Virus record (IMG/VR): IMGVR_UViG_3300029705_000039
Direction: 5' to 3' (one strand)
Length of the DNA stretch: 64,000 nt
DNA from: a virus
Taxonomy: Duplodnaviria; Caudoviricetes
A program made the translations under genes and the position numbers. Each line of letters begins with the position of its first letter. Positions within the stretch are counted from its first letter, which is position 1. This document shows positions 10,969 through 60,033 of this stretch, piece after piece. Under the pieces are notes generated by a model. That model saw only the letters and a list, made by a program, of their open reading frames with translations. It was not told where the DNA came from and did not search any database.

Positions 10969-11262
10969 ATGGAACATTTAGATACTATTATGAAAGAATC
11001 CGTCTGTGGTAGATGCGGCAATTTACGATATTGGGATGGATATTTTTGCAGTAATTTGCCAGAGGAATTTAATAAATACGTAGAATATACTGAATTAGAT
11101 GAATTATATCATTTTAAATTTGGTATTCAAATTAAAGAGTGTAAGCATTTTATTCCTCGCATTCCTTGTAATGTGGCGCCTGCGAATCACGAATGCCAGT
11201 TCTGGTGCTTGGGATTGCCTGGTAAGAATAAGTGTGTTTATGCTGATTTATTTTTACATTAA
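10969..11262 (+). CDS. Cys-rich hypothetical protein
   Basis: GGAG RBS, multiple Cys motifs. Confidence 0.55.
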   Translation: MEHLDTIMKESVCGRCGNLRYWDGYFCSNLPEEFNKYVEYTELDELYHFKFGIQIKECKHFIPRIPCNVAPANHECQFWCLGLPGKNKCVYADLFLH

Positions 11263-11328
11263 AAATTTGACAAAAATAAAAAATCATTATATAATATATT
11301 TATAAGGTTGAGGAAAACTCAACCATAT

Positions 11329-11415
11329 GCCCGGATGGCGGAATTGGCGAGACGCGCTCGACTCAAAATCGAGTACATTGATACACTGTGGGTTCAAATC
11401 CCACTCTGGGTACCA
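11329..11415 (+). tRNA. tRNA-Leu(CAA)
   Basis: cloverleaf, loop CTCAAAA, ACCA. Confidence 0.9.
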
Positions 11416-11556: not shown

Positions 11557-11647
11557 TGGGGATTGGTGTAATGGCAGCACGGCGGACTCTAAATCCGTGA
11601 GCCCCCTGAAGGCGTAAGTCAGGGTTCAAATCCCTGGTCCCCAGCCA
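11557..11647 (+). tRNA. amber-decoding tRNA (CTA), Gln-like
   Basis: GCGGA-CTCTAAA-TCCGT; U1-A72, G73, CCA; extended variable region. Confidence 0.88.
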
Positions 11648-13772: not shown

Positions 13773-15165
13773 AAATATATTTCAAAAGGAGCAAGATGCT
13801 CTTTTACAAACTGTCTTGGGGCTAAGATTCTTAGACCCCTGGACAGATAAAGAATATGATGATTTCTCATTGGTAGCAGATGCTAACCTAGAAATCTTTA
13901 TTACTAGCGCTTGTAATCAAAAATGCGAATATTGCTATCTAATTAAACATAAAGATTTATATCCGCAAGAATTTCGAGATAAAAGTTTAATATTAGATAA
14001 TTTAAGAAAATTATATGATTGGATTTATGATAATAATTATCATATCCCTCTTTGTACTTTTTTCTCTGGTGAAATTTGGCATATCAATTTTGGTTTGGAA
14101 GTATTAGATATTACTTTAGAATATTTAAAGAAGGGAATTAATATCGATAGATTTATGATTCCTTCTAATTGTTCTTTTGTCTTAGATGAATCTCAACTAG
14201 AAAAAATTCAAACCTATATTGATCTATTTGATAAATATGGATATCCTCTACAATTTTCTATTTCAGTAGATGGCGCTATTTTAGAATCTGAAACGAGACC
14301 ATTAAATAATGGAATTGCCAAAACAGAAGATTATTATGATAGATTATTTCTATTTGCTAAACATAATAATTATTATTTTCATCCAATGGTCAGCGCCTTT
14401 AGCGTGGAAAAGTGGATAGAAAATTACAAATGGTGGGAAAAACAATTTAACAAATGGGATATGAATATTTCAGCCTTAATGATGTTAGAGGTTAGAAATG
14501 ATGATTGGACAGAAGAAAAAATCACCGCTTATACATCCTTTCTTAATTTTTTAATTGATAAATATTTTGAAGAAGAATGTGGAAAAAATGTAGAAGTGTT
14601 TTCTAATCGTCTAATGAATATTCGCAATTATATTCCACAAAAAATTCATCCTGCCGAATTAGCCGGTTATACTCCTTGGGCATTACCAGAAACTGACAGT
14701 TTTATTGGTTGTACCTGCGCTAATGAACTAACTGTACGGCTTGGCGATTTGGCAATTATACCTTGCCATAGATTGGGATATAATAAATATAAATATGGCA
14801 ACTTTACATTAAAAAATAATCATATTGACACAATTGAAGCAAATAATCCTCAAATGGCAGTTAAAATCTTAATGAGCAACTTTAATCTTGCTAGTTTTGG
14901 TTGCGATACTTGTTTATTTAATCATTATTGCCTTAAAGGGTGCTATGGTAGCCAATATGAAAATATGGGCGATCCATTTATTCCTGTTCCGAATATTTGT
15001 AACTTCTTTAAAAAGAAATATAGTTTTCTTTTACAAAAGTATAAGGATATGGGAGTATTTGATTATTACAAAACTATTGCACCGCAGGAATTAGAATATC
15101 CGCGTATTAAGAAATTATTAGACCTTTTTGAAGAGTGGGAGGTTTCGCCGCTATGCAATGGATAA
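13753..15165 (+). CDS. radical SAM/SPASM protein 2
   Basis: CNQKCEYC, SISVDG, GC...PCHR...CDTC...C..GC...C. Confidence 0.9.
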   Translation: MMLEKTKNIFQKEQDALLQTVLGLRFLDPWTDKEYDDFSLVADANLEIFITSACNQKCEYCYLIKHKDLYPQEFRDKSLILDNLRKLYDWIYDNNYHIPLCTFFSGEIWHINFGLEVLDITLEYLKKGINIDRFMIPSNCSFVLDESQLEKIQTYIDLFDKYGYPLQFSISVDGAILESETRPLNNGIAKTEDYYDRLFLFAKHNNYYFHPMVSAFSVEKWIENYKWWEKQFNKWDMNISALMMLEVRNDDWTEEKITAYTSFLNFLIDKYFEEECGKNVEVFSNRLMNIRNYIPQKIHPAELAGYTPWALPETDSFIGCTCANELTVRLGDLAIIPCHRLGYNKYKYGNFTLKNNHIDTIEANNPQMAVKILMSNFNLASFGCDTCLFNHYCLKGCYGSQYENMGDPFIPVPNICNFFKKKYSFLLQKYKDMGVFDYYKTIAPQELEYPRIKKLLDLFEEWEVSPLCNG

Positions 15166-18263: not shown

Positions 18264-18379
18264 TAGGCACATACAGCAAAACAGTAGTCCAATTGGGCCG
18301 GTAGCTCAGATGGTAAGAGCATTAGATTGATAATCTGAAGGTCGTTGGTTCGAGTCCAACCTGTTAAATATGTGTCTAG
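18264..18379 (+). ncRNA. CAGCAA module copy 5 enclosing a tRNA-Ile(GAT)-like body
   Basis: TAGGCACATA-CAGCAA ... TATGTGTCTAG; D, anticodon and T arms inside; no CCA. Confidence 0.7.
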
Positions 18380-18520: not shown

Positions 18521-18639
18521 GGAAACGTGGTGTAACGGTAGCACTTAAACAAGTCGGTATAGGCCGCGGACCGGTCAGCAATCTTTCTTTAGACGATTCT
18601 GCAAAAATTGAGGAGTTGGTTCGAATCCAACCGTTTCCA
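18521..18639 (+). ncRNA. tRNA-like RNA (GCA loop) with CAGCAA insertion between D and anticodon arms
   Basis: GGAAACG/CGTTTCC acceptor, D and T arms, CGATT-CTGCAAA-AATTG; about 48-nt insert. Confidence 0.7.
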
Positions 18640-22947: not shown

Positions 22948-23135
22948 TTTCAATGGAAAAATTATGGAAATGGTTAAGAGCGCATTTTTGTATTCACGAT
23001 TATGTACATCAAGAAACTCATACCATTCGTAATTTTAAAACTCAACCTCCCTATTTTCTGGCAACCTATAAATGCTCTAAGTGCGGCAAAGTAATTAGCA
23101 AATATATTGGTTAAGCGGCTTTGCCGCCGTTTTAT

Positions 23136-23291
23136 AGCCGAGTAGCCAAGTGGAAAGGCACGGGACTTCGTAAAGTAGTGTAATTGGTAGCAATGTTTCC
23201 GGTTAGCGCGCAGGGGACGGTGTTGGTTCGAATCCAACCTTTACGGCCATGACTCCCGCATTCGCTGGTTCGAGCCCAGCCTCGGCTGCCA
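23136..23291 (+). tRNA. tRNA-Gln(TTG) split in its anticodon by a nested tRNA-like RNA
   Basis: CGGGA-CTT|insert|TGAC-TCCCG; acceptor AGCCGAG/CTCGGCT, GCCA. Confidence 0.85.
23169..23249 (+). ncRNA. nested tRNA-like RNA (81 nt) ending in GCCA
   Basis: CGTAAAG/CTTTACG acceptor, D loop TGGTA, T arm GTTGG-TTCGAAT-CCAAC, 12-nt non-canonical anticodon loop. Confidence 0.85.
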
Positions 23292-23542
23292 AAGGGATAA
23301 CAATGCCCTTGTATGAAAACTTTCTTGCCCCAGTTTGTATAGATGCGGGATAATTCCTTCGTCTTAGTTTTGGACAAGAATCGTGCAAACCTTATAGAAC
23401 TGTAGGTTTATATGGAGGTCCGCGGCTTCCTAATTTAGAACAGTTCTTTTAGATTTGGTGCTTACCAAACTAAACCTATCGAGGACGTGTGAGGCGGGAA
23501 TGTTTGAGCCTGATTAAGTTCAGGGTGTAGATAGGTTTTTAT

Positions 23543-30950: not shown

Positions 30951-31739
30951 ATGGGATTAATTTATATGCTAACCAGCCCCAGTGGAAGATCTTATATTGG
31001 ATAGACAAAGCGACCCTTTACTATACGATGGAATCAGCATAAAAGAGAGGCGGAAACTGGAAATGATACTCCTCTTTATAAAGCCATACGAAAATATGGC
31101 GCCGATTCTTTTTAGCATACAATATTAATAGAAACAGATAATGACAAATTAAATGAGTTAGAATAGTATTATATTAAATAGTATAATACGTATAATAATG
31201 GTTATAATTGCACTATCGGTGGCGAAGGAAATTGCAAAATTTCTGATGAGACTATTATTCAACTTTGGGAGAGTGGGTTGTGCTCAGCAGATATAGCACG
31301 GCAATTAAATGTATAGGGACATACTATTGAAAATAGAATTAAAAGTCTTTATTCTGATGCTGAAATATAGGAACGTCGATACGCTTCAATTGGGAAAAAA
31401 CTTCAATTAAAAGATAATAATATAAAAACTCTATGGGATTAGGGCTATAGTGTTACTTAGATTTCGGATATATTATCCTATGATAGACATACAGTAAGCC
31501 GTGTTTTATAGAGACTGGGAATTACTCCTGAACAGTTAGAATATTCTAGAAAGGCCCACAGCGGTGATAAGAAAAATTCTCCCATAATACAATATGATAA
31601 AAATGGTAATTTTATATAGGAATGGTTTTCAATTAGTGAAGCGGCGAGACAATTAAATATTCACGCTGGTAATATTTGCAAAGTTCTAAAAAAAGAAAGA
31701 AAAACTACTGGTGGTTATATATTTAAATATAAGGAGTAA
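30951..31739 (+). CDS. GIY-YIG homing endonuclease with HTH and NUMOD1 (10 TAG=Gln; absent from ORF track)
   Basis: MGLIYMLTSPSGRSYIG*T; GYNCT.GGEG; SISEAAR...GGYIFKY. Confidence 0.85.
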
Positions 31740-31741
31740 TT

Positions 31742-32878
31742 ATGATTAAGATTAATGATGTTGATGAATTATTTGAAATGGAGCCTATGCGCTATTGGAG
31801 TCTGCCTTCTGGTCTTACTGATATCGAACGTCAGGAAAAATTAAATATGGCACTTTCTACGGGTGAATATATTTATAGCCTTAAAACAGATGGCAATCTG
31901 ATTCGTGCTGTTATCACTCCTGACCGTTTTGCTCTTCAAACTCGCGGTAGAGGAAGAAATACCGGTGTATTTGGTGAAATTCAAGATAAAGTTTTTTGGG
32001 CAGACGCTATTGCAAATGCTTTTGAAGATACAACCGTTTTAATCGGTGAAGCGTATATTGAGGGTAAAGTAGACCGAGATGTAGGAGCCGTGCTTCGCTC
32101 ATTAACCGATAAGGCAATTGCCCGACAGAAGGGTAATAATGTTGTAAAGTTCCGCATCTTTGATTGCCTTTACTATAATGGTGAAAATCTTCTTTCTACT
32201 CCCATTATTGAGCGCATTAAGTATCTCCCGCAGGCAGTCGAAGCAATTGGACACGAACTTGTTAGTTATGTAAAGTATTATGAAGCCAAGCCTGAAACTT
32301 TCTGGGATAAACTTTCTACTATCTTTGAAAAAGGCGGCGAAGGCGTAGTTCTTTATAAAAAAAGTATGTTGCCTTGCGAAAACCGCACTCCTGCCTGGCA
32401 GACTATTAAGGTAAAGCAAGTTTTGAAGGAACATATTGATTGTTTTATTTATGGTGTAGAACCTGCGGAAAAGAACTACACTGGCAAAGAACTTCCCACG
32501 TGGCAATACTGGATGGATGATAAGACAGGAGAAAAGTTCCTTGGCTCCTATTATCTTAAGTATTGTGATGGCGGTATGATTATTCCTATTTCTAAGGGAT
32601 ATTATTATAATTGGCCTGGTGCAATTAAGTGCGCAGTTTATGATGAAAATCACAATCCTGTTGTTCTTTGTAAATGCTCTGGCCTTACTGAAGAAATGAA
32701 GGCGGCCTTGCGGGATAACTATGATGAATGGCATATGTGCCCTGTAAAGATTGACGGCATGATGATTTCAAAAGATTCAAAAACTGGCTCAATTAGCGTG
32801 CGACATCCGAAGTTGATTTCTATTAGAGATAATGACATTGATATTAATGATTGTCTATTGTCTAAGGTGGTAAAGTAA
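31742..32878 (+). CDS. ATP-dependent DNA ligase
   Basis: KTDG motif I, GEAY, FRIFD, EGVV, K.K, VRHP. Confidence 0.85.
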   Translation: MIKINDVDELFEMEPMRYWSLPSGLTDIERQEKLNMALSTGEYIYSLKTDGNLIRAVITPDRFALQTRGRGRNTGVFGEIQDKVFWADAIANAFEDTTVLIGEAYIEGKVDRDVGAVLRSLTDKAIARQKGNNVVKFRIFDCLYYNGENLLSTPIIERIKYLPQAVEAIGHELVSYVKYYEAKPETFWDKLSTIFEKGGEGVVLYKKSMLPCENRTPAWQTIKVKQVLKEHIDCFIYGVEPAEKNYTGKELPTWQYWMDDKTGEKFLGSYYLKYCDGGMIIPISKGYYYNWPGAIKCAVYDENHNPVVLCKCSGLTEEMKAALRDNYDEWHMCPVKIDGMMISKDSKTGSISVRHPKLISIRDNDIDINDCLLSKVVK

Positions 32879-55260: not shown

Positions 55261-56508
55261 ATGGAATATGTAATCAAACGTGATGGTTCTCAGGTCTTAT
55301 ATAATAAAGATAAAATTTATGAAGCTATTAATGCCGCGAATGAAGAATGTATTCTTAAAGAAGAAGGGTATTTAACATTAGAATCTCTCTATGATGCCTT
55401 AGAGGATATTGATAGTCGTTGCAACGACCATGTGTCTGATATTGGTGTAGAAGAAATTCAGAACATTGTTGAACGTGTATTAATGTCCTATGAACCTGAT
55501 GTTGCTCGTGCTTATATTCGCTATCGTTATATGAAAGAAGTCGCTCGTGAATATAAGGCAGACTTTTTTGAAGCGATTGGCGATAAACTCGCGGCTAAGA
55601 ATGTAGTCAACCAAAATGCCAACGTAGACGAGCATTCCTTCGGCGGCCGCGTAGGCGAAGCATCTGATGCTATGATGAAAGAGTATGCACTTAACTTCTG
55701 CATGTCCAAGATGGCGCGCGAAAATCATTTAAATAATGAAATTTATATTCATGACCTAAGTGCTTATGCAGTTGGGATGCACAATTGCCTTACTGTTCCT
55801 TTTGACCATCTACTTGAAAAAGGCTTCAATACTCGTCAAGTTGATATTCGTCCCGCTAATAGTGTAGATACTGCTTTCCAGTTAGTTGCTGTTATTTTCC
55901 AACTACAATCTCTAATGCAGTTTGGCGGCGTAAGTGCTTCTCATATTGACTGGACTATGGTACCTTATGTAAGAAAGAGTTTTAGAAAACATTGGAACAA
56001 TGGATTAAAATATTTAGCATTTTGGGAAGTAAAAGATGAAGACTATGAAACTGAAAATAAGCCCTTGGATGAATATCCCAATTTTGATGATTATCAAGAT
56101 ATTTATCGGTATGCTATGGAAATGACTGAAAAAGAACTATCCCAAGCCGCAGAAGGCTTATATCATAACCTCAATTCTCTCCAAAGCCGCAGCGGAAACC
56201 AGTTGCCCTTTACCTCCCTTAACTATGGAACTTGCACTCTTCCTGAAGGTCGCATGGTAATTAAGGCTCTACTTGAAGGCTCCATTAAAGGCGTAGGCAA
56301 GCATCATCGCACTCCTATCTTCCCTTGCGGTATTTTCCAAGTCGGCGAAGGAATCAACAAGCATCCTGGCGACCCTAATTATGATTTATTCCAGCTGGCA
56401 CTAAAATCAACTTCTTTACGTCTATATCCCAATTATGCTAATATTGATTGGTCTGGTAATGCAGGATATGATAAAAACGACCCAAAAACTTATTTCTCTA
56501 CCATGGGT
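55261..56508 (+). CDS. nrdD: anaerobic ribonucleoside-triphosphate reductase, exon 1
   Basis: ATP cone VIKRDG, IYIHDL, HNC, QLPFTS; ends ...STMG. Confidence 0.92.
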
Positions 56509-57334
56509 AAGTGCAAACTACAGCTCATGTAAAATCTTTTGAACCTCGCCCGAGGGTGTCTGCGTAAGCAGGCTAACGGTTAGGTCCCACGAGGATGAGA
56601 CCGTGCGAAGATTCGTTATAATATTCATCTCTGTGAGGTGAATATATGGAAGTTTATAAGATTACTAACCTAATAAATGATAAAGTTTATATTGGTTAGA
56701 CAATTCGACCTATTTAGTAGCGTTTTCATCGGCATATAAGCGATGCTATGAATAATATACTTGATACACATTTTGCAAGAGCAATAAGAAAATACGGTCC
56801 AGATAATTGGAAAATAGAAAGTATAGACATCGCTAAAACATAGGAAGAATTAAATCAAAAAGAACAGTATTGGATTAATTATTATAATTCTGTTATAGAT
56901 GGATATAATGAAACAAATGCCATTAGCAAGTGCGGTGGAAATACTTATCAATCTAAAACAGAAGAAGAAATGAAAATTATTAAGGAAAAGATACGAAAAA
57001 CTAAACTTGGTGGTAAAAATCCCATGGCACGAAAAATAAAAAGAACAAATATACAAACTGGAGAAACCGATATTTTTGAAACAGTTATATCTTGTGCCAA
57101 AGCTTGCGGGATACAAAATGGAAAAACATCAATTACCACCCGGCTAAATAAACAAATAACTTCTCCTTATAAAAATACTTGGACTTTTGAATATTATAAC
57201 GAATAACGTGTATCGACTATCCCTGATGAATGTAAGGGAGTAGGACAGGAGATAGGCACCTGTCCGAAGCGGAAGACTATCTTGACAAAGATAGAAGATA
57301 TAGTCAGTGCTGATGGCAACATCAGATAAACATG
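56509..57334 (+). mobile_element. group I intron in nrdD
   Basis: exon ends in U, intron ends in G; splicing restores TMG|CRT; P7-type CGACTA / GATATAGTC. Confidence 0.9.
56646..57206 (+). CDS. intron-encoded GIY-YIG homing endonuclease (4 TAG=Gln)
   Basis: MEVYKITNLINDKVYIG*T...GYN; NUMOD-like tail. Confidence 0.85.
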
Positions 57335-58339
57335 TGTAGAACGGCGAACGGCTGGGATGTAAATGGTTTGGGTCAGCAAAAGGACGGCCGCGGTAATATT
57401 TGTCCTGTAACGATTATTATGCCTACGCTTGCAATGATGGCTTTGGGTGGTGGAGGAGGTCCTTGTGAGGAATTGACACTAGAACACCCAGTAATAGAAG
57501 AGCGTATTAAGAAATTTATGACTCTTCTTGATAAGAAAATCCACGAAGCCAAAGATATGCTAATTGAGCGCTTTGAATATATTTGCCGCCAAAGTCCTGA
57601 CTCAGCCAAGTTTATGTATGAAAATAATACTATGGCAGGCTATGTGCCAGAAGAAGGTATTCGCTCTGCCTTAAAGCATGGAACAGTTGTAATTGGACAA
57701 CTTGGTTTAGCAGAAACCTTAGAAATTTTAATCGGTAAGAATCACACTACTCCCGAAGGTATGGAACTTGCAAAGCGTATTGAGCAGTTATTTAAAGATA
57801 GATGTGCTGAATTTAAGCAACAGTATAAATTGAACTTTGGTGTATATTATACGCCTGCTGAAAACCTCTGCTATACTGCTATGAAGAAGTTCCAAGATAA
57901 ATATGGAACTATTCCTCATGTAAGCGACCATGAATACTTCACTAATAGTATCCACGTTCCTGTTTGGGAAAAGGTTAATGTTCTTGAAAAAATCGATATT
58001 GAAAGCGAACTAACTGGTTATAGTTCCGCAGGCTGCATTACTTATGTTGAACTTGAAAGCGGCATTAAAAATAACCTATCCGCCTTGGAACAAATTGTTA
58101 TCTATGCTATGGATAAAGATATTCCTTATCTTGCTATCAATGTCCCCAATGATACTTGCCTTGATTGCGGCTATACTGATGAATTTAACGACAAGTGTCC
58201 TGAGTGCGGCAGTACCAATATTCAGCAGCTTCGCCGCGTAACAGGCTACTTAACAGGCGACTATAAAACCGCCTTCAATAAAGGTAAACAATATGAAACT
58301 GAAGACCGAGTAAAACATACCGGAAGGATGGAACAGTAA
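57335..58339 (+). CDS. nrdD: anaerobic ribonucleoside-triphosphate reductase, exon 2
   Basis: CRT, TPAENL, YFTNS, CLDC/CPEC, RRVTGYL glycyl loop. Confidence 0.92.
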   Translation, partial: CRTANGWDVNGLGQQKDGRGNICPVTIIMPTLAMMALGGGGGPCEELTLEHPVIEERIKKFMTLLDKKIHEAKDMLIERFEYICRQSPDSAKFMYENNTMAGYVPEEGIRSALKHGTVVIGQLGLAETLEILIGKNHTTPEGMELAKRIEQLFKDRCAEFKQQYKLNFGVYYTPAENLCYTAMKKFQDKYGTIPHVSDHEYFTNSIHVPVWEKVNVLEKIDIESELTGYSSAGCITYVELESGIKNNLSALEQIVIYAMDKDIPYLAINVPNDTCLDCGYTDEFNDKCPECGSTNIQQLRRVTGYLTGDYKTAFNKGKQYETEDRVKHTGRMEQ

Positions 58340-59031: not shown

Positions 59032-60033
59032 ATGGATATCTTTATTATTATATGTCTAATTGGTTTATCTCTTTACCTTGCTTATAAATATACTCAATTA
59101 CAAAAGTAGCAATCTAGTTATAAGGAACTATAGACGGATATTTAGAACGCGAATAGTATCTTAGACGATATTAAAGCATAGACTAAAACCGCCACAGAAG
59201 AGCTACAAGATATATAGCAATCTTAGACTAGTCATCAGTTTGAATTGGTTGCTCTACTTGCTAAAGAAGACGAATTACGCAAAAATATTGATAGTAATTA
59301 GGCAATCGTAGCAAGCCAAACCGAAATTATTAATAACTATCGAGAGCAATACAGTGCCCTAAAAGATGAGTAGGATAAAAAATGTCTACAAATCATTTAG
59401 GATACTTCCTTAAAAATTAATTAGATTGAAGCAAGTTATAAATTAACTATTGAATAGAAGGAACAAGAAACCAAAGCGATTATTGAATAGTTAGCTGCCA
59501 ATCTTGAGGAAGAGCGGCAAAAATATCTTTCTATTATCGAAACTGTCTAGAATGCTTAGACAGAAGATGAAAAAGATGCCAATAGGCATATTAAAATTCG
59601 TGATGCCACAAAAGATGATATTAATTATCTTTTAAATAATGTTGCCAATAAACTATCTAATCCTGATATTTTATATAAGCTTATTTGGTCTGAATATATT
59701 CAAAAACCTACTAATGAGATGTTAGACTTTATTTTACCACAACGTGATTGCCCGGGTATTTATAAAATCACTAACGATAAAAATAAAAAAGCGTATATCG
59801 GTCGTTCCACTTCTGTCCGTAAACGTCTAACCGACCACATCAAAAGCGCGGTTGGCATAAGCACCATCGCGGATTAGCGAGTTCATCAAGCAATGCGGGA
59901 AGAAGGCTTATGGAATTTTACTTTTGAACTGATAGAAGAATGCGATAAAGACAAGCTTAATGAGCGAGAAAAATTTTATATCCAATTCTTCTCAACCGAA
60001 CAACTTGGATATAATCAGAAAGCAGGAGGCTAA
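59032..60033 (+). CDS. membrane-anchored coiled-coil GIY-YIG nuclease (15 TAG=Gln; absent from ORF track)
   Basis: N-terminal TM, long coiled coil, GIYKITN...YIGRS...R...H...E..GYN. Confidence 0.85.

Follow-up and report, generated by a model that had tools for sequence, protein, structure and literature searches.

The window analysed here, a stretch of 64,000 nucleotides (64 kilobases, kb) from the Caudoviricetes virus record IMGVR_UViG_3300029705_000039, carries on its plus strand a gene for the transfer RNA (tRNA) tRNA-Gln(UUG) that is split within the anticodon, between positions 34 and 35, by an insert that is itself shaped like a tRNA. The 5′ exon (23136..23168, + strand, 33 nucleotides (nt)) supplies the 5′ strand of the acceptor stem, the D arm, the 5′ strand of the anticodon stem and C32, U33 and U34, and the 3′ exon (23250..23291, + strand, 42 nt) continues with U35, G36, A37 and C38, the 3′ strand of the anticodon stem, the variable loop, the T arm, the 3′ strand of the acceptor stem, G73 and CCA. 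Joining the two yields a 75-nt tRNA that ARAGORN identifies as tRNA-Gln(UUG), with the 7-nt anticodon loop CTTTGAC (CUUUGAC as RNA), an A1-U72 pair, discriminator G73 and an encoded CCA; across the exon junction it reads ...GGGACUU|UGACUCCCG.... A first-pass annotation of the window had stated that removal of 23169-23249 restores this perfect loop, and its coordinates are exact. Because the flanking bases differ from the end bases of the insert, the boundaries are fixed and cannot slide by even one base.

The 81-nt insert (23169..23249, + strand) was recognised by ARAGORN, which returns 'tRNA-???', by the Rfam tRNA model (RF00005, 36 bits, with the gathering score at 29) and by a tail-agnostic scan, which found this one nested tRNA in the window and no second. 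Its parts all lie on the + strand. The acceptor strands CGTAAAG (23169-23175) and CTTTACG (23239-23245) pair at 7/7 positions and the T stem-loop (23222-23238, GTTGG TTCGAAT CCAAC) at 5/5, the discriminator G (23246) and the CCA (23247-23249) form the tail GCCA, and U34 of the outer tRNA stands at position -1. This combination of an acceptor/T stack, the T-loop TTCGAAT, R73-CCA (R, purine) and U(-1) matches the features expected of a substrate of bacterial ribonuclease P (RNase P). The anticodon arm is aberrant, with a 6-base-pair (bp) stem and a 12-nt loop in the minimum-energy fold, and in the ARAGORN version an 8-nt loop, a 4-base 'anticodon' and a G.A mismatch; it lacks the set of features that marks a decoding tRNA, namely a 5-bp anticodon stem, a 7-nt loop, U33, a three-base anticodon and a purine at 37. 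The first-pass annotation had described the insert as complete with all arms but devoid of a real anticodon. Both predictions of the arm bear out the second statement, and of the first the acceptor stem and the canonical T arm stand, whereas the D stem is weak and the anticodon arm unusable. When the complete 156-nt locus is folded, the minimum-energy structure preserves the acceptor and anticodon stems of the outer tRNA together with the acceptor and T stems of the insert.

The same architecture is present in 13 other contigs from different projects, comprising six IMG/VR contigs (L003, L013 and L035-L038) and seven metagenome contigs (L051, L055, L057, L059, L060, L064 and L065). The search used a gapped pattern on the outer anticodon stem, which at first gave 31 chance hits in coding DNA among 33 matches, and then the 3′ junction pattern CCA|TGACTCCCGCATTC(G); the remaining pattern matches likewise fell in coding DNA by chance. 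The inserts fall into seven types of 48, 62, 75, 76, 81, 91 and 111 nt, all located between U34 and U35 of tRNA-Gln(UUG). Each type has a terminal stem paired at 7/7 positions and, directly 5′ of its 3′ strand, a hairpin paired at 5/5 with a 7-nt loop that has C at position 3; a purine discriminator and CCA follow, and then immediately exon TGAC. The stem sequences differ between inserts, and swapping strands between them lowers the pairing to 4.2/7 in the acceptor stem and 3.6/5 in the T stem; the pairing has therefore been kept by compensatory change. The interior is variable, ranging from a complete, normal-looking tRNA-Lys(UUU) that scores 51.7 bits with Rfam (L013:13658-13733, +) to a 48-nt type that is reduced to the acceptor/T-arm minihelix alone. 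In the window, the 48-nt and the 62-nt types the inner RNA is unable to decode.

Because the same design recurs in independent assemblies, the nested architecture is neither a product of chance nor a misassembly. We consider it extremely improbable that the locus is an assembly chimera, or a tRNA-Arg(UCG) whose intron is shifted 3′ by two bases, as it appears in the ARAGORN -i output (tRNA-Arg(tcg) i(35,81)), given 13 independent contigs from different projects with the same arrangement and an intron-less allele and 32 uninterrupted homologues that read CTTTGAC; the boundary reported by ARAGORN is a default placement. ARAGORN -i was set aside as a general intron finder, as most of its calls fuse neighbouring tRNAs and at this locus it gave the wrong boundary and identity. 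For the window's own version, the cultured-phage database returned only generic tRNA similarity, the exon-intron junction was not found in IMG/VR, the 81-nt insert is not among the IMG/VR, metagenome and genome matches to the 3′ junction pattern, and BLAST detected no relatives of the insert among the loci fetched before this search. In bacterial genome contigs the 3′ junction pattern gave 17 matches, none in a tRNA, and no chromosomal example with that pattern.

In 32 IMG/VR contigs the tRNA-Gln(UUG) gene shares the anticodon arm of the split genes but has no insert, and all of them read CTTTGAC in the loop. The intron-less allele of contig L113 is identical at 75/75 positions to the joined exons of L038, and the flanks of these two contigs are ~97% identical, with a sole gap that coincides with the insert (62 nt), beginning at the first acceptor base and ending with CCA. 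The insert is a discrete unit that extends from acceptor base 1 to CCA, with the boundaries proven in the sister type of 62 nt. For the outer tRNA of the window itself, the matches examined include no intron-less allele; its joined exons are 64-68/75 identical to uninterrupted phage tRNA-Gln genes. The outer tRNAs that carry inserts differ from one another and yet all keep their stems paired, G73 and a weak 1-72 pair, which speaks for selection acting on the interrupted gene as a tRNA-Gln. It is also the only tRNA-Gln in the complete relative G001, the 181-kb record rated complete to which contig L003 belongs and which is syntenic with the window at 50-76% amino-acid identity over most genes.

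These observations also bear on the possibility that no splicing takes place, and that a tRNA-like mobile element or tRNA gene has inserted into the anticodon loop and killed the tRNA-Gln gene, with RNase P freeing the inner RNA as the product and leaving the halves as debris. Such a role would suit the working-looking inner tRNAs, tRNA-Lys(UUU) in L013 (51.7 bits) and tRNA(CUA) in L037 (49.7 bits), and tRNA-Gln could be supplied by the host. However, a dead gene would not be expected to stay intact in at least seven lineages, its acceptor and T stems fully compensated and its 7-nt loop perfect once the insert is removed, and the interrupted copy is the sole tRNA-Gln of G001. Since the inner RNA of three insert types cannot decode and the inserts co-vary with an RNA ligase, we regard this explanation as improbable.

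Inserts of this kind are not confined to tRNA-Gln. We ran two further scans, the first requiring a 7/7 terminal stem and CCA with the junction allowed anywhere in the resulting tRNA, and the second leaving the tail free, again with a free junction in the outer tRNA; in every match the junction lies within the anticodon. Contig L013 has a 50-nt insert at 34/35 of a tRNA with anticodon UAA (tRNA-Leu), L051 a 63-nt insert at 35/36 of tRNA-Lys(UUU), and L037 (2742-2818, - strand) an amber-suppressor tRNA(CUA) of 49.7 bits (Rfam) as insert at 36/37 of tRNA-Ile(UAU). The tail-agnostic scan yielded a 73-nt insert with the tail ACAA in tRNA-Ile(UAU) of record G003 and a 135-nt insert in tRNA-Ile(GAU) of G031; its tails were ACCA (n=4), GCCA (n=1) and ACAA (n=1). 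With one exception, the base that precedes the insert is U. The window insert belongs to a group with the ends 'CGTA-R-A...T-A-C-G-R-CCA', which is seen in Gln, Lys and UAA-anticodon tRNAs. The occurrence of homologous inserts in different tRNA genes, together with their presence or absence between near-identical genomes, points to a related and probably mobile family. Release of the suppressor nested in L037 would be tied to the processing of its tRNA-Ile(UAU). A second kind of short insert (41-68 nt), not tRNA-shaped, also occurs in the anticodon regions of phage tRNAs, and consists of a hairpin followed by a shared 'ACAGCAA...TTT.AAA' motif (G020:52597-53168, G003:120885-121153 and G001:171489-171632); it was seen in ligase-positive records only.

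Mobility raises the question of whether the insert acts on DNA, by breaking a homing-endonuclease site in the anticodon-loop DNA and so serving as an immunity element (collaborative homing) with splicing as its cost. The window has three GIY-YIG homing-endonuclease genes (30951-31739, 56646-57206 and 59032-60033, all +) and, free-standing in the tRNA array upstream of tRNA-Met, a gene for a PD-(D/E)XK endonuclease of family PF11645 (21325-21768, +), which we take to be the family of I-Ssp6803I, an enzyme that cuts tRNA-gene DNA at the anticodon loop. Near-identical genomes with and without the insert, and homologous inserts in different tRNA genes, would likewise be expected of such a device. 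However, PF11645 was not found in five insert-carrying related records, in a search without a positive-control match, and no endonuclease gene adjoins the insert. Since it would still require a splicing route, this idea complements rather than replaces the splicing explanation developed below, and in its own right we judge it distinctly improbable.

Introns at this site have a familiar precedent in group I introns, which interrupt the anticodon loops of bacterial and plastid tRNAs, such as tRNA-Leu(UAA) at 34/35 and tRNA-fMet with I-Ssp6803I. The inserts resemble them in their anticodon-loop site, their patchy, mobile-looking distribution and the homing endonucleases nearby. A group I intron was nevertheless rejected, as 81 nt (48 in relatives) is far too small for the ribozyme core (P3-P9), which usually takes 200 nt or more, and no Rfam intron family was detected in the window; given this size the insert is not self-splicing, and its removal must therefore be by proteins or RNase P. 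We also considered the archaeal and eukaryal tRNA introns handled by EndA/Sen and RtcB or Trl1, with which the proposed route would share protein-dependent cutting and ligation, an intron in the anticodon loop and a tRNA body that holds the exons, but which differ in that the hosts here are bacterial. A bulge-helix-bulge intron was rejected: the junctions flank a 7-bp stem within a 3 x 8 nt internal loop, and EndA and RtcB are absent from 5/5 related records.

Based on these comparisons, we propose that the locus is a functional tRNA-Gln(UUG) gene with a mobile tRNA-mimic intron between U34 and U35, probably spliced by RNase P, an endonuclease and a ligase, and we place the probability of this reading at roughly 0.55. 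For recognition, bacterial RNase P relies on the acceptor/T-arm stack; it favours U(-1), pairs with RCCA and leaves a 3′-OH and a 5′-phosphate. The intron would retain just what tRNA end-processing enzymes read, namely a T arm with a 7-bp acceptor stem stacked on it, a discriminator purine and a CCA end. In the precursor the inner mini-tRNA would prolong the anticodon stem of the outer tRNA. RNase P would cut 5′ of the first intron base and leave U34 with a 3′-OH, and an endonuclease, with an RNase Z/BN-like activity as candidate, would cut directly after the intron CCA while the stems of the outer tRNA hold the exons together. A phage-encoded, Rnl5-like ATP-dependent RNA ligase would then seal U34-OH to pU35 and produce the loop CUUUGAC, and the kinase and phosphoesterase encoded beside it would heal the ends if required.

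The ligase is suggested by comparison with related phages. The family phrog_968, annotated as 'RNA ligase', occurs in 6/6 IMG/VR records with a nested tRNA-Gln (E-values down to 1e-75), including G001. In these records the protein is 440-500 amino acids long and combines an OB domain (PHA02142) at its N terminus with an RNA-ligase domain (PF09414); its nearest solved relative is the Naegleria gruberi RNA ligase (5cot), which has the Rnl5 architecture. Rnl5-type ligases join 3′-OH to 5′-phosphate RNA ends. An AAA_33 kinase was detected in 5/5 related records. In G002-G005 it is no more than ~1.5-2 kb away from the ligase, and in G003-G005 the interval between the two holds a gene for a metallophosphoesterase or an RlaP-like protein. 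RtcB and EndA were not found in the 5/5 related phage records, and neither was T4 Rnl1, the latter a weak negative from a search without a positive-control match.

Inserts and ligase co-vary. A whole-record insert scan covered 11 records, ten rated 90-100% complete plus G004 at 76%. Ligase and insert are both present in G001, G003, G004 and G031 and both absent from G008, G012, G024, G028 and G030, and G018 and G020 have the ligase without an insert; tRNA-shaped inserts thus occur in 4/6 ligase-positive and 0/5 ligase-negative records (one-sided Fisher test, ~0.045). Records with an uninterrupted tRNA-Gln encode the ligase in 16 of 30 cases, and in 3 of the 8 that are at least 90% complete. 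A closer comparison is offered by G004 and G008, which are 95-98% identical over 84% of G004. G008, complete and with terminal repeats, has neither the 62-nt intron nor exactly the segment G004:4373-5918, which is the ligase gene, and keeps the adjacent kinase and phosphoesterase.

The same genes lend themselves to a different route, in which a dedicated endonuclease of phage or host cuts at both junctions and leaves 2′,3′-cyclic-phosphate and 5′-OH ends that are healed by the kinase and phosphoesterase before the ligase seals them, comparable to T4 Pnkp/Rnl1, and in which the tRNA shape of the intron serves stability, acts as a decoy or reflects a use of the released RNA. A kinase-phosphoesterase-ligase cassette is indeed a heal-and-seal set that would be superfluous for RNase P-type ends, and for a Firmicutes host there is no established enzyme that cleaves 3′ of CCA. 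This route nonetheless leaves unexplained why the minihelix, R-CCA and the preceding base are invariant while the interior shrinks to 48 nt, and EndA and RtcB, as said, were not found in related records. Moreover, because G008 keeps kinase and phosphoesterase without ligase or intron, these two genes have uses beyond the intron. Overall we consider a dedicated endonuclease unlikely.

Several points weigh against splicing by RNase P, an endonuclease and the phage ligase. The cut after CCA is the weak step of the route. Some RNase Z enzymes cleave just 3′ of an encoded CCA, but on the B. subtilis enzyme CCA has a strong inhibitory effect (PMC7479834 for both), and since a SpoIID/SH3 lysin in the window suggests a Firmicutes host, this cut is a difficult one. 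The metallo-beta-lactamase nuclease (Lactamase_B_2) was not found in the five related phage records. The window encodes no RNA ligase in its 64 kb, and the presence of one in this phage is deduced only from G001; the ligase that the window does hold is an ATP-dependent DNA ligase (31742-32878). Rnl5 ligases are known for sealing nicks in duplex RNA, not breaks in anticodon loops. The association tally concerns few, partly related genomes, two of them ligase-positive and free of inserts, and because G004 and G008 differ in ~10 other segments, with ~16% of G004 unaligned, the joint loss of intron and ligase could be coincidence.

Weighing both sides, we hold the full pathway to be close to even odds, from somewhat below to slightly above, and a protein route of some kind that ends in the phage ligase to be somewhat more probable. 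The first-pass annotation had proposed excision by tRNA-maturation enzymes followed by ligation. In favour are the discrete insert, the conserved minihelix with R-CCA and the co-occurrence of a ligase in relatives; CCA inhibition of the B. subtilis enzyme and the lack of an RNA ligase in the window remain on the other side, and we propose this mechanism as the best available, with comparative support.

The window is a phage fragment of 36% G+C with ~25 tRNA genes on the + strand, and its other genes include those for DnaE, gyrase A/B, DnaB, RecJ, NrdD and a SpoIID-SH3 lysin. Both the window and G001 read the stop codon TAG as sense, and window genes with 7-15 in-frame TAG occur. Where G001 could be compared, TAG in the window is matched by TAG 12 times, by Gln four times and never by Ser, Leu or Tyr, a small sample that is compatible with TAG encoding Gln. 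In the 91-nt amber suppressor tRNA(CUA) (11557-11647, +) an extra region of 21 nt separates the anticodon arm from the T arm, and the ends are Gln-like (U1-A72 and G73); a 91-nt counterpart lies at G001:150928-151018. The first-pass annotation had pointed out that the split tRNA matches the recoded amino acid and could regulate its supply. The match is compatible with this decoding of TAG, but because the same kind of insert occurs equally in tRNA-Lys, tRNA-Leu and tRNA-Ile, the idea of supply regulation is not specific to Gln and its link to recoding is weak.

Recoding may extend further in related lineages. The near-identical phages L038 (- strand) and L113 both have, ~190 nt downstream of tRNA-Gln, a conserved Gln-like tRNA whose loop is CTTTAAC and whose anticodon, UUA, would read UAA; tRNA(UUA) calls were also obtained in L035-L037. 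This suggests that TAA may be read as sense in the L035-L038/L113 lineages. Within the window, the GIY-YIG genes, with 10, 4 and 15 in-frame TAG in order of position, are among the most TAG-recoded, and most replication genes contain none. The second of them sits in the gap of ~800 bp between the two pieces of the anaerobic ribonucleotide reductase gene nrdD (55261-56532 and 57332-58339, +), where Rfam detected no group I intron.

Further RNA elements lie near the tRNA array. A terminator-like GC hairpin with a T run (23115..23135, +), which ends 8 nt before the first base of the split tRNA, is context to which we assign no role, and the 251-nt non-coding spacer between the nested tRNA and tRNA-Val (23292-23542, +) has no Rfam match and no similarity to the fetched loci. 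An odd tRNA-like gene at 18521-18639 (+) scores 41.9 bits with the Rfam tRNA model, in an alignment that contains an insertion of 59 nt. Its acceptor stem and its D and T arms are well formed, with ~65 nt of other sequence in place of the anticodon arm and no encoded CCA. It shares an identical T arm and the stretch 'CAGCAAT.TTTC' with the nested insert. Possible identities are a tRNA mimic that lacks an anticodon and a tRNA with an intron of a second kind, and a brute-force deletion scan of it gave no unique solution. Immediately before this gene, within the tRNA array and after a partial tRNA, lies a drum RNA (RF02958; 18406-18519, +, 75.8 bits), and BLAST found no relatives of either the odd element or the drum RNA among the loci fetched before this search. 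The partial tRNA is a tRNA-Ile(GAU)-like sequence (18299-18363, +, 52 bits) that covers model positions 5-66 and is followed by no complementary 3′ acceptor strand; a similar partial tRNA is found just after the nested tRNA-Gln of L003 (5429-5491). Orphan RNA motifs also lie beside tRNAs in L013, where RAGATH-33 occupies 11235-11365 and DUF3800-XI (13778-13828) comes directly after the nested tRNA-Gln.

Nested tRNAs of this type have been seen before in large phages. The first-pass annotation had pointed to such introns in Lak megaphages, and this precedent was confirmed: 'enigmatic' introns were described in Lak megaphage tRNAs (Devoto et al. 2019, PMC6784885, Fig. 4), among them one in tRNA-Thr(UGU) that was predicted to encode a tRNA and was present or absent between cohorts (PMC6784885). 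For jumbo phages with an alternative code, a 2026 survey remarked that their tRNA introns 'could encode another tRNA' (PMC13037316). The window insert is a further case of these tRNA-in-tRNA introns, and shares with them an anticodon-loop insert predicted as a tRNA and a stop codon read as sense, with presence/absence variation seen for the sister 62-nt type; it differs in belonging to a ~180-kb lineage with a Firmicutes-type lysin and in that its host tRNA is Gln rather than Thr or Tyr. Our literature searches found no mechanism for such introns, and PMC6784885 and PMC13037316 give neither anatomy nor mechanism. Documented here are the conserved minihelix, the R-CCA tail, the fixed insertion site and the co-variation of inserts with an Rnl5-like phage RNA ligase.

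The proposed route also has parallels in other systems. Phage T4 Pnkp/Rnl1 repairs mature tRNA-Lys that the host defence nuclease PrrC has cut in the anticodon loop. Common to both are a phage ligase with kinase and phosphatase, a break beside the wobble base and tRNAs with U34; here, by contrast, the break would come from removal of an encoded insert instead of nuclease damage, and the ligase is Rnl5-like, not Rnl1. In MALAT1 mascRNA and in mitochondrial tRNA punctuation a tRNA-shaped module that RNase P and RNase Z read likewise sets where the neighbouring RNAs end, but these are left unjoined, whereas here the flanks must be ligated into a tRNA. Tentatively, and with somewhat less than an even chance of being right, we suggest that large phages have a third way of splicing tRNAs, in which a mobile acceptor/T-arm mimic would be removed by RNase P and a CCA-end endonuclease and the exons joined by an Rnl5-type ligase.

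If this is true, it would mean that a protein- and RNase P-based form of tRNA splicing exists in bacteria and phages, distinct from the group I and the archaeal/eukaryal endonuclease routes, and widespread phage RNA ligases would acquire a housekeeping function in addition to mending the damage done by host nucleases. The near-identical pair G004 and G008 makes the idea of a linked intron and ligase directly testable. The design would be portable, as any RNA could be split by the minihelix and then rejoined. For these phages, maturation of tRNA-Gln(UUG) would depend on a phage enzyme, and elsewhere an amber suppressor would be carried as an 'intron'; with tRNA-Lys or an amber suppressor nested in relatives, the arrangement bears on how recoded phages may control their tRNA supply.

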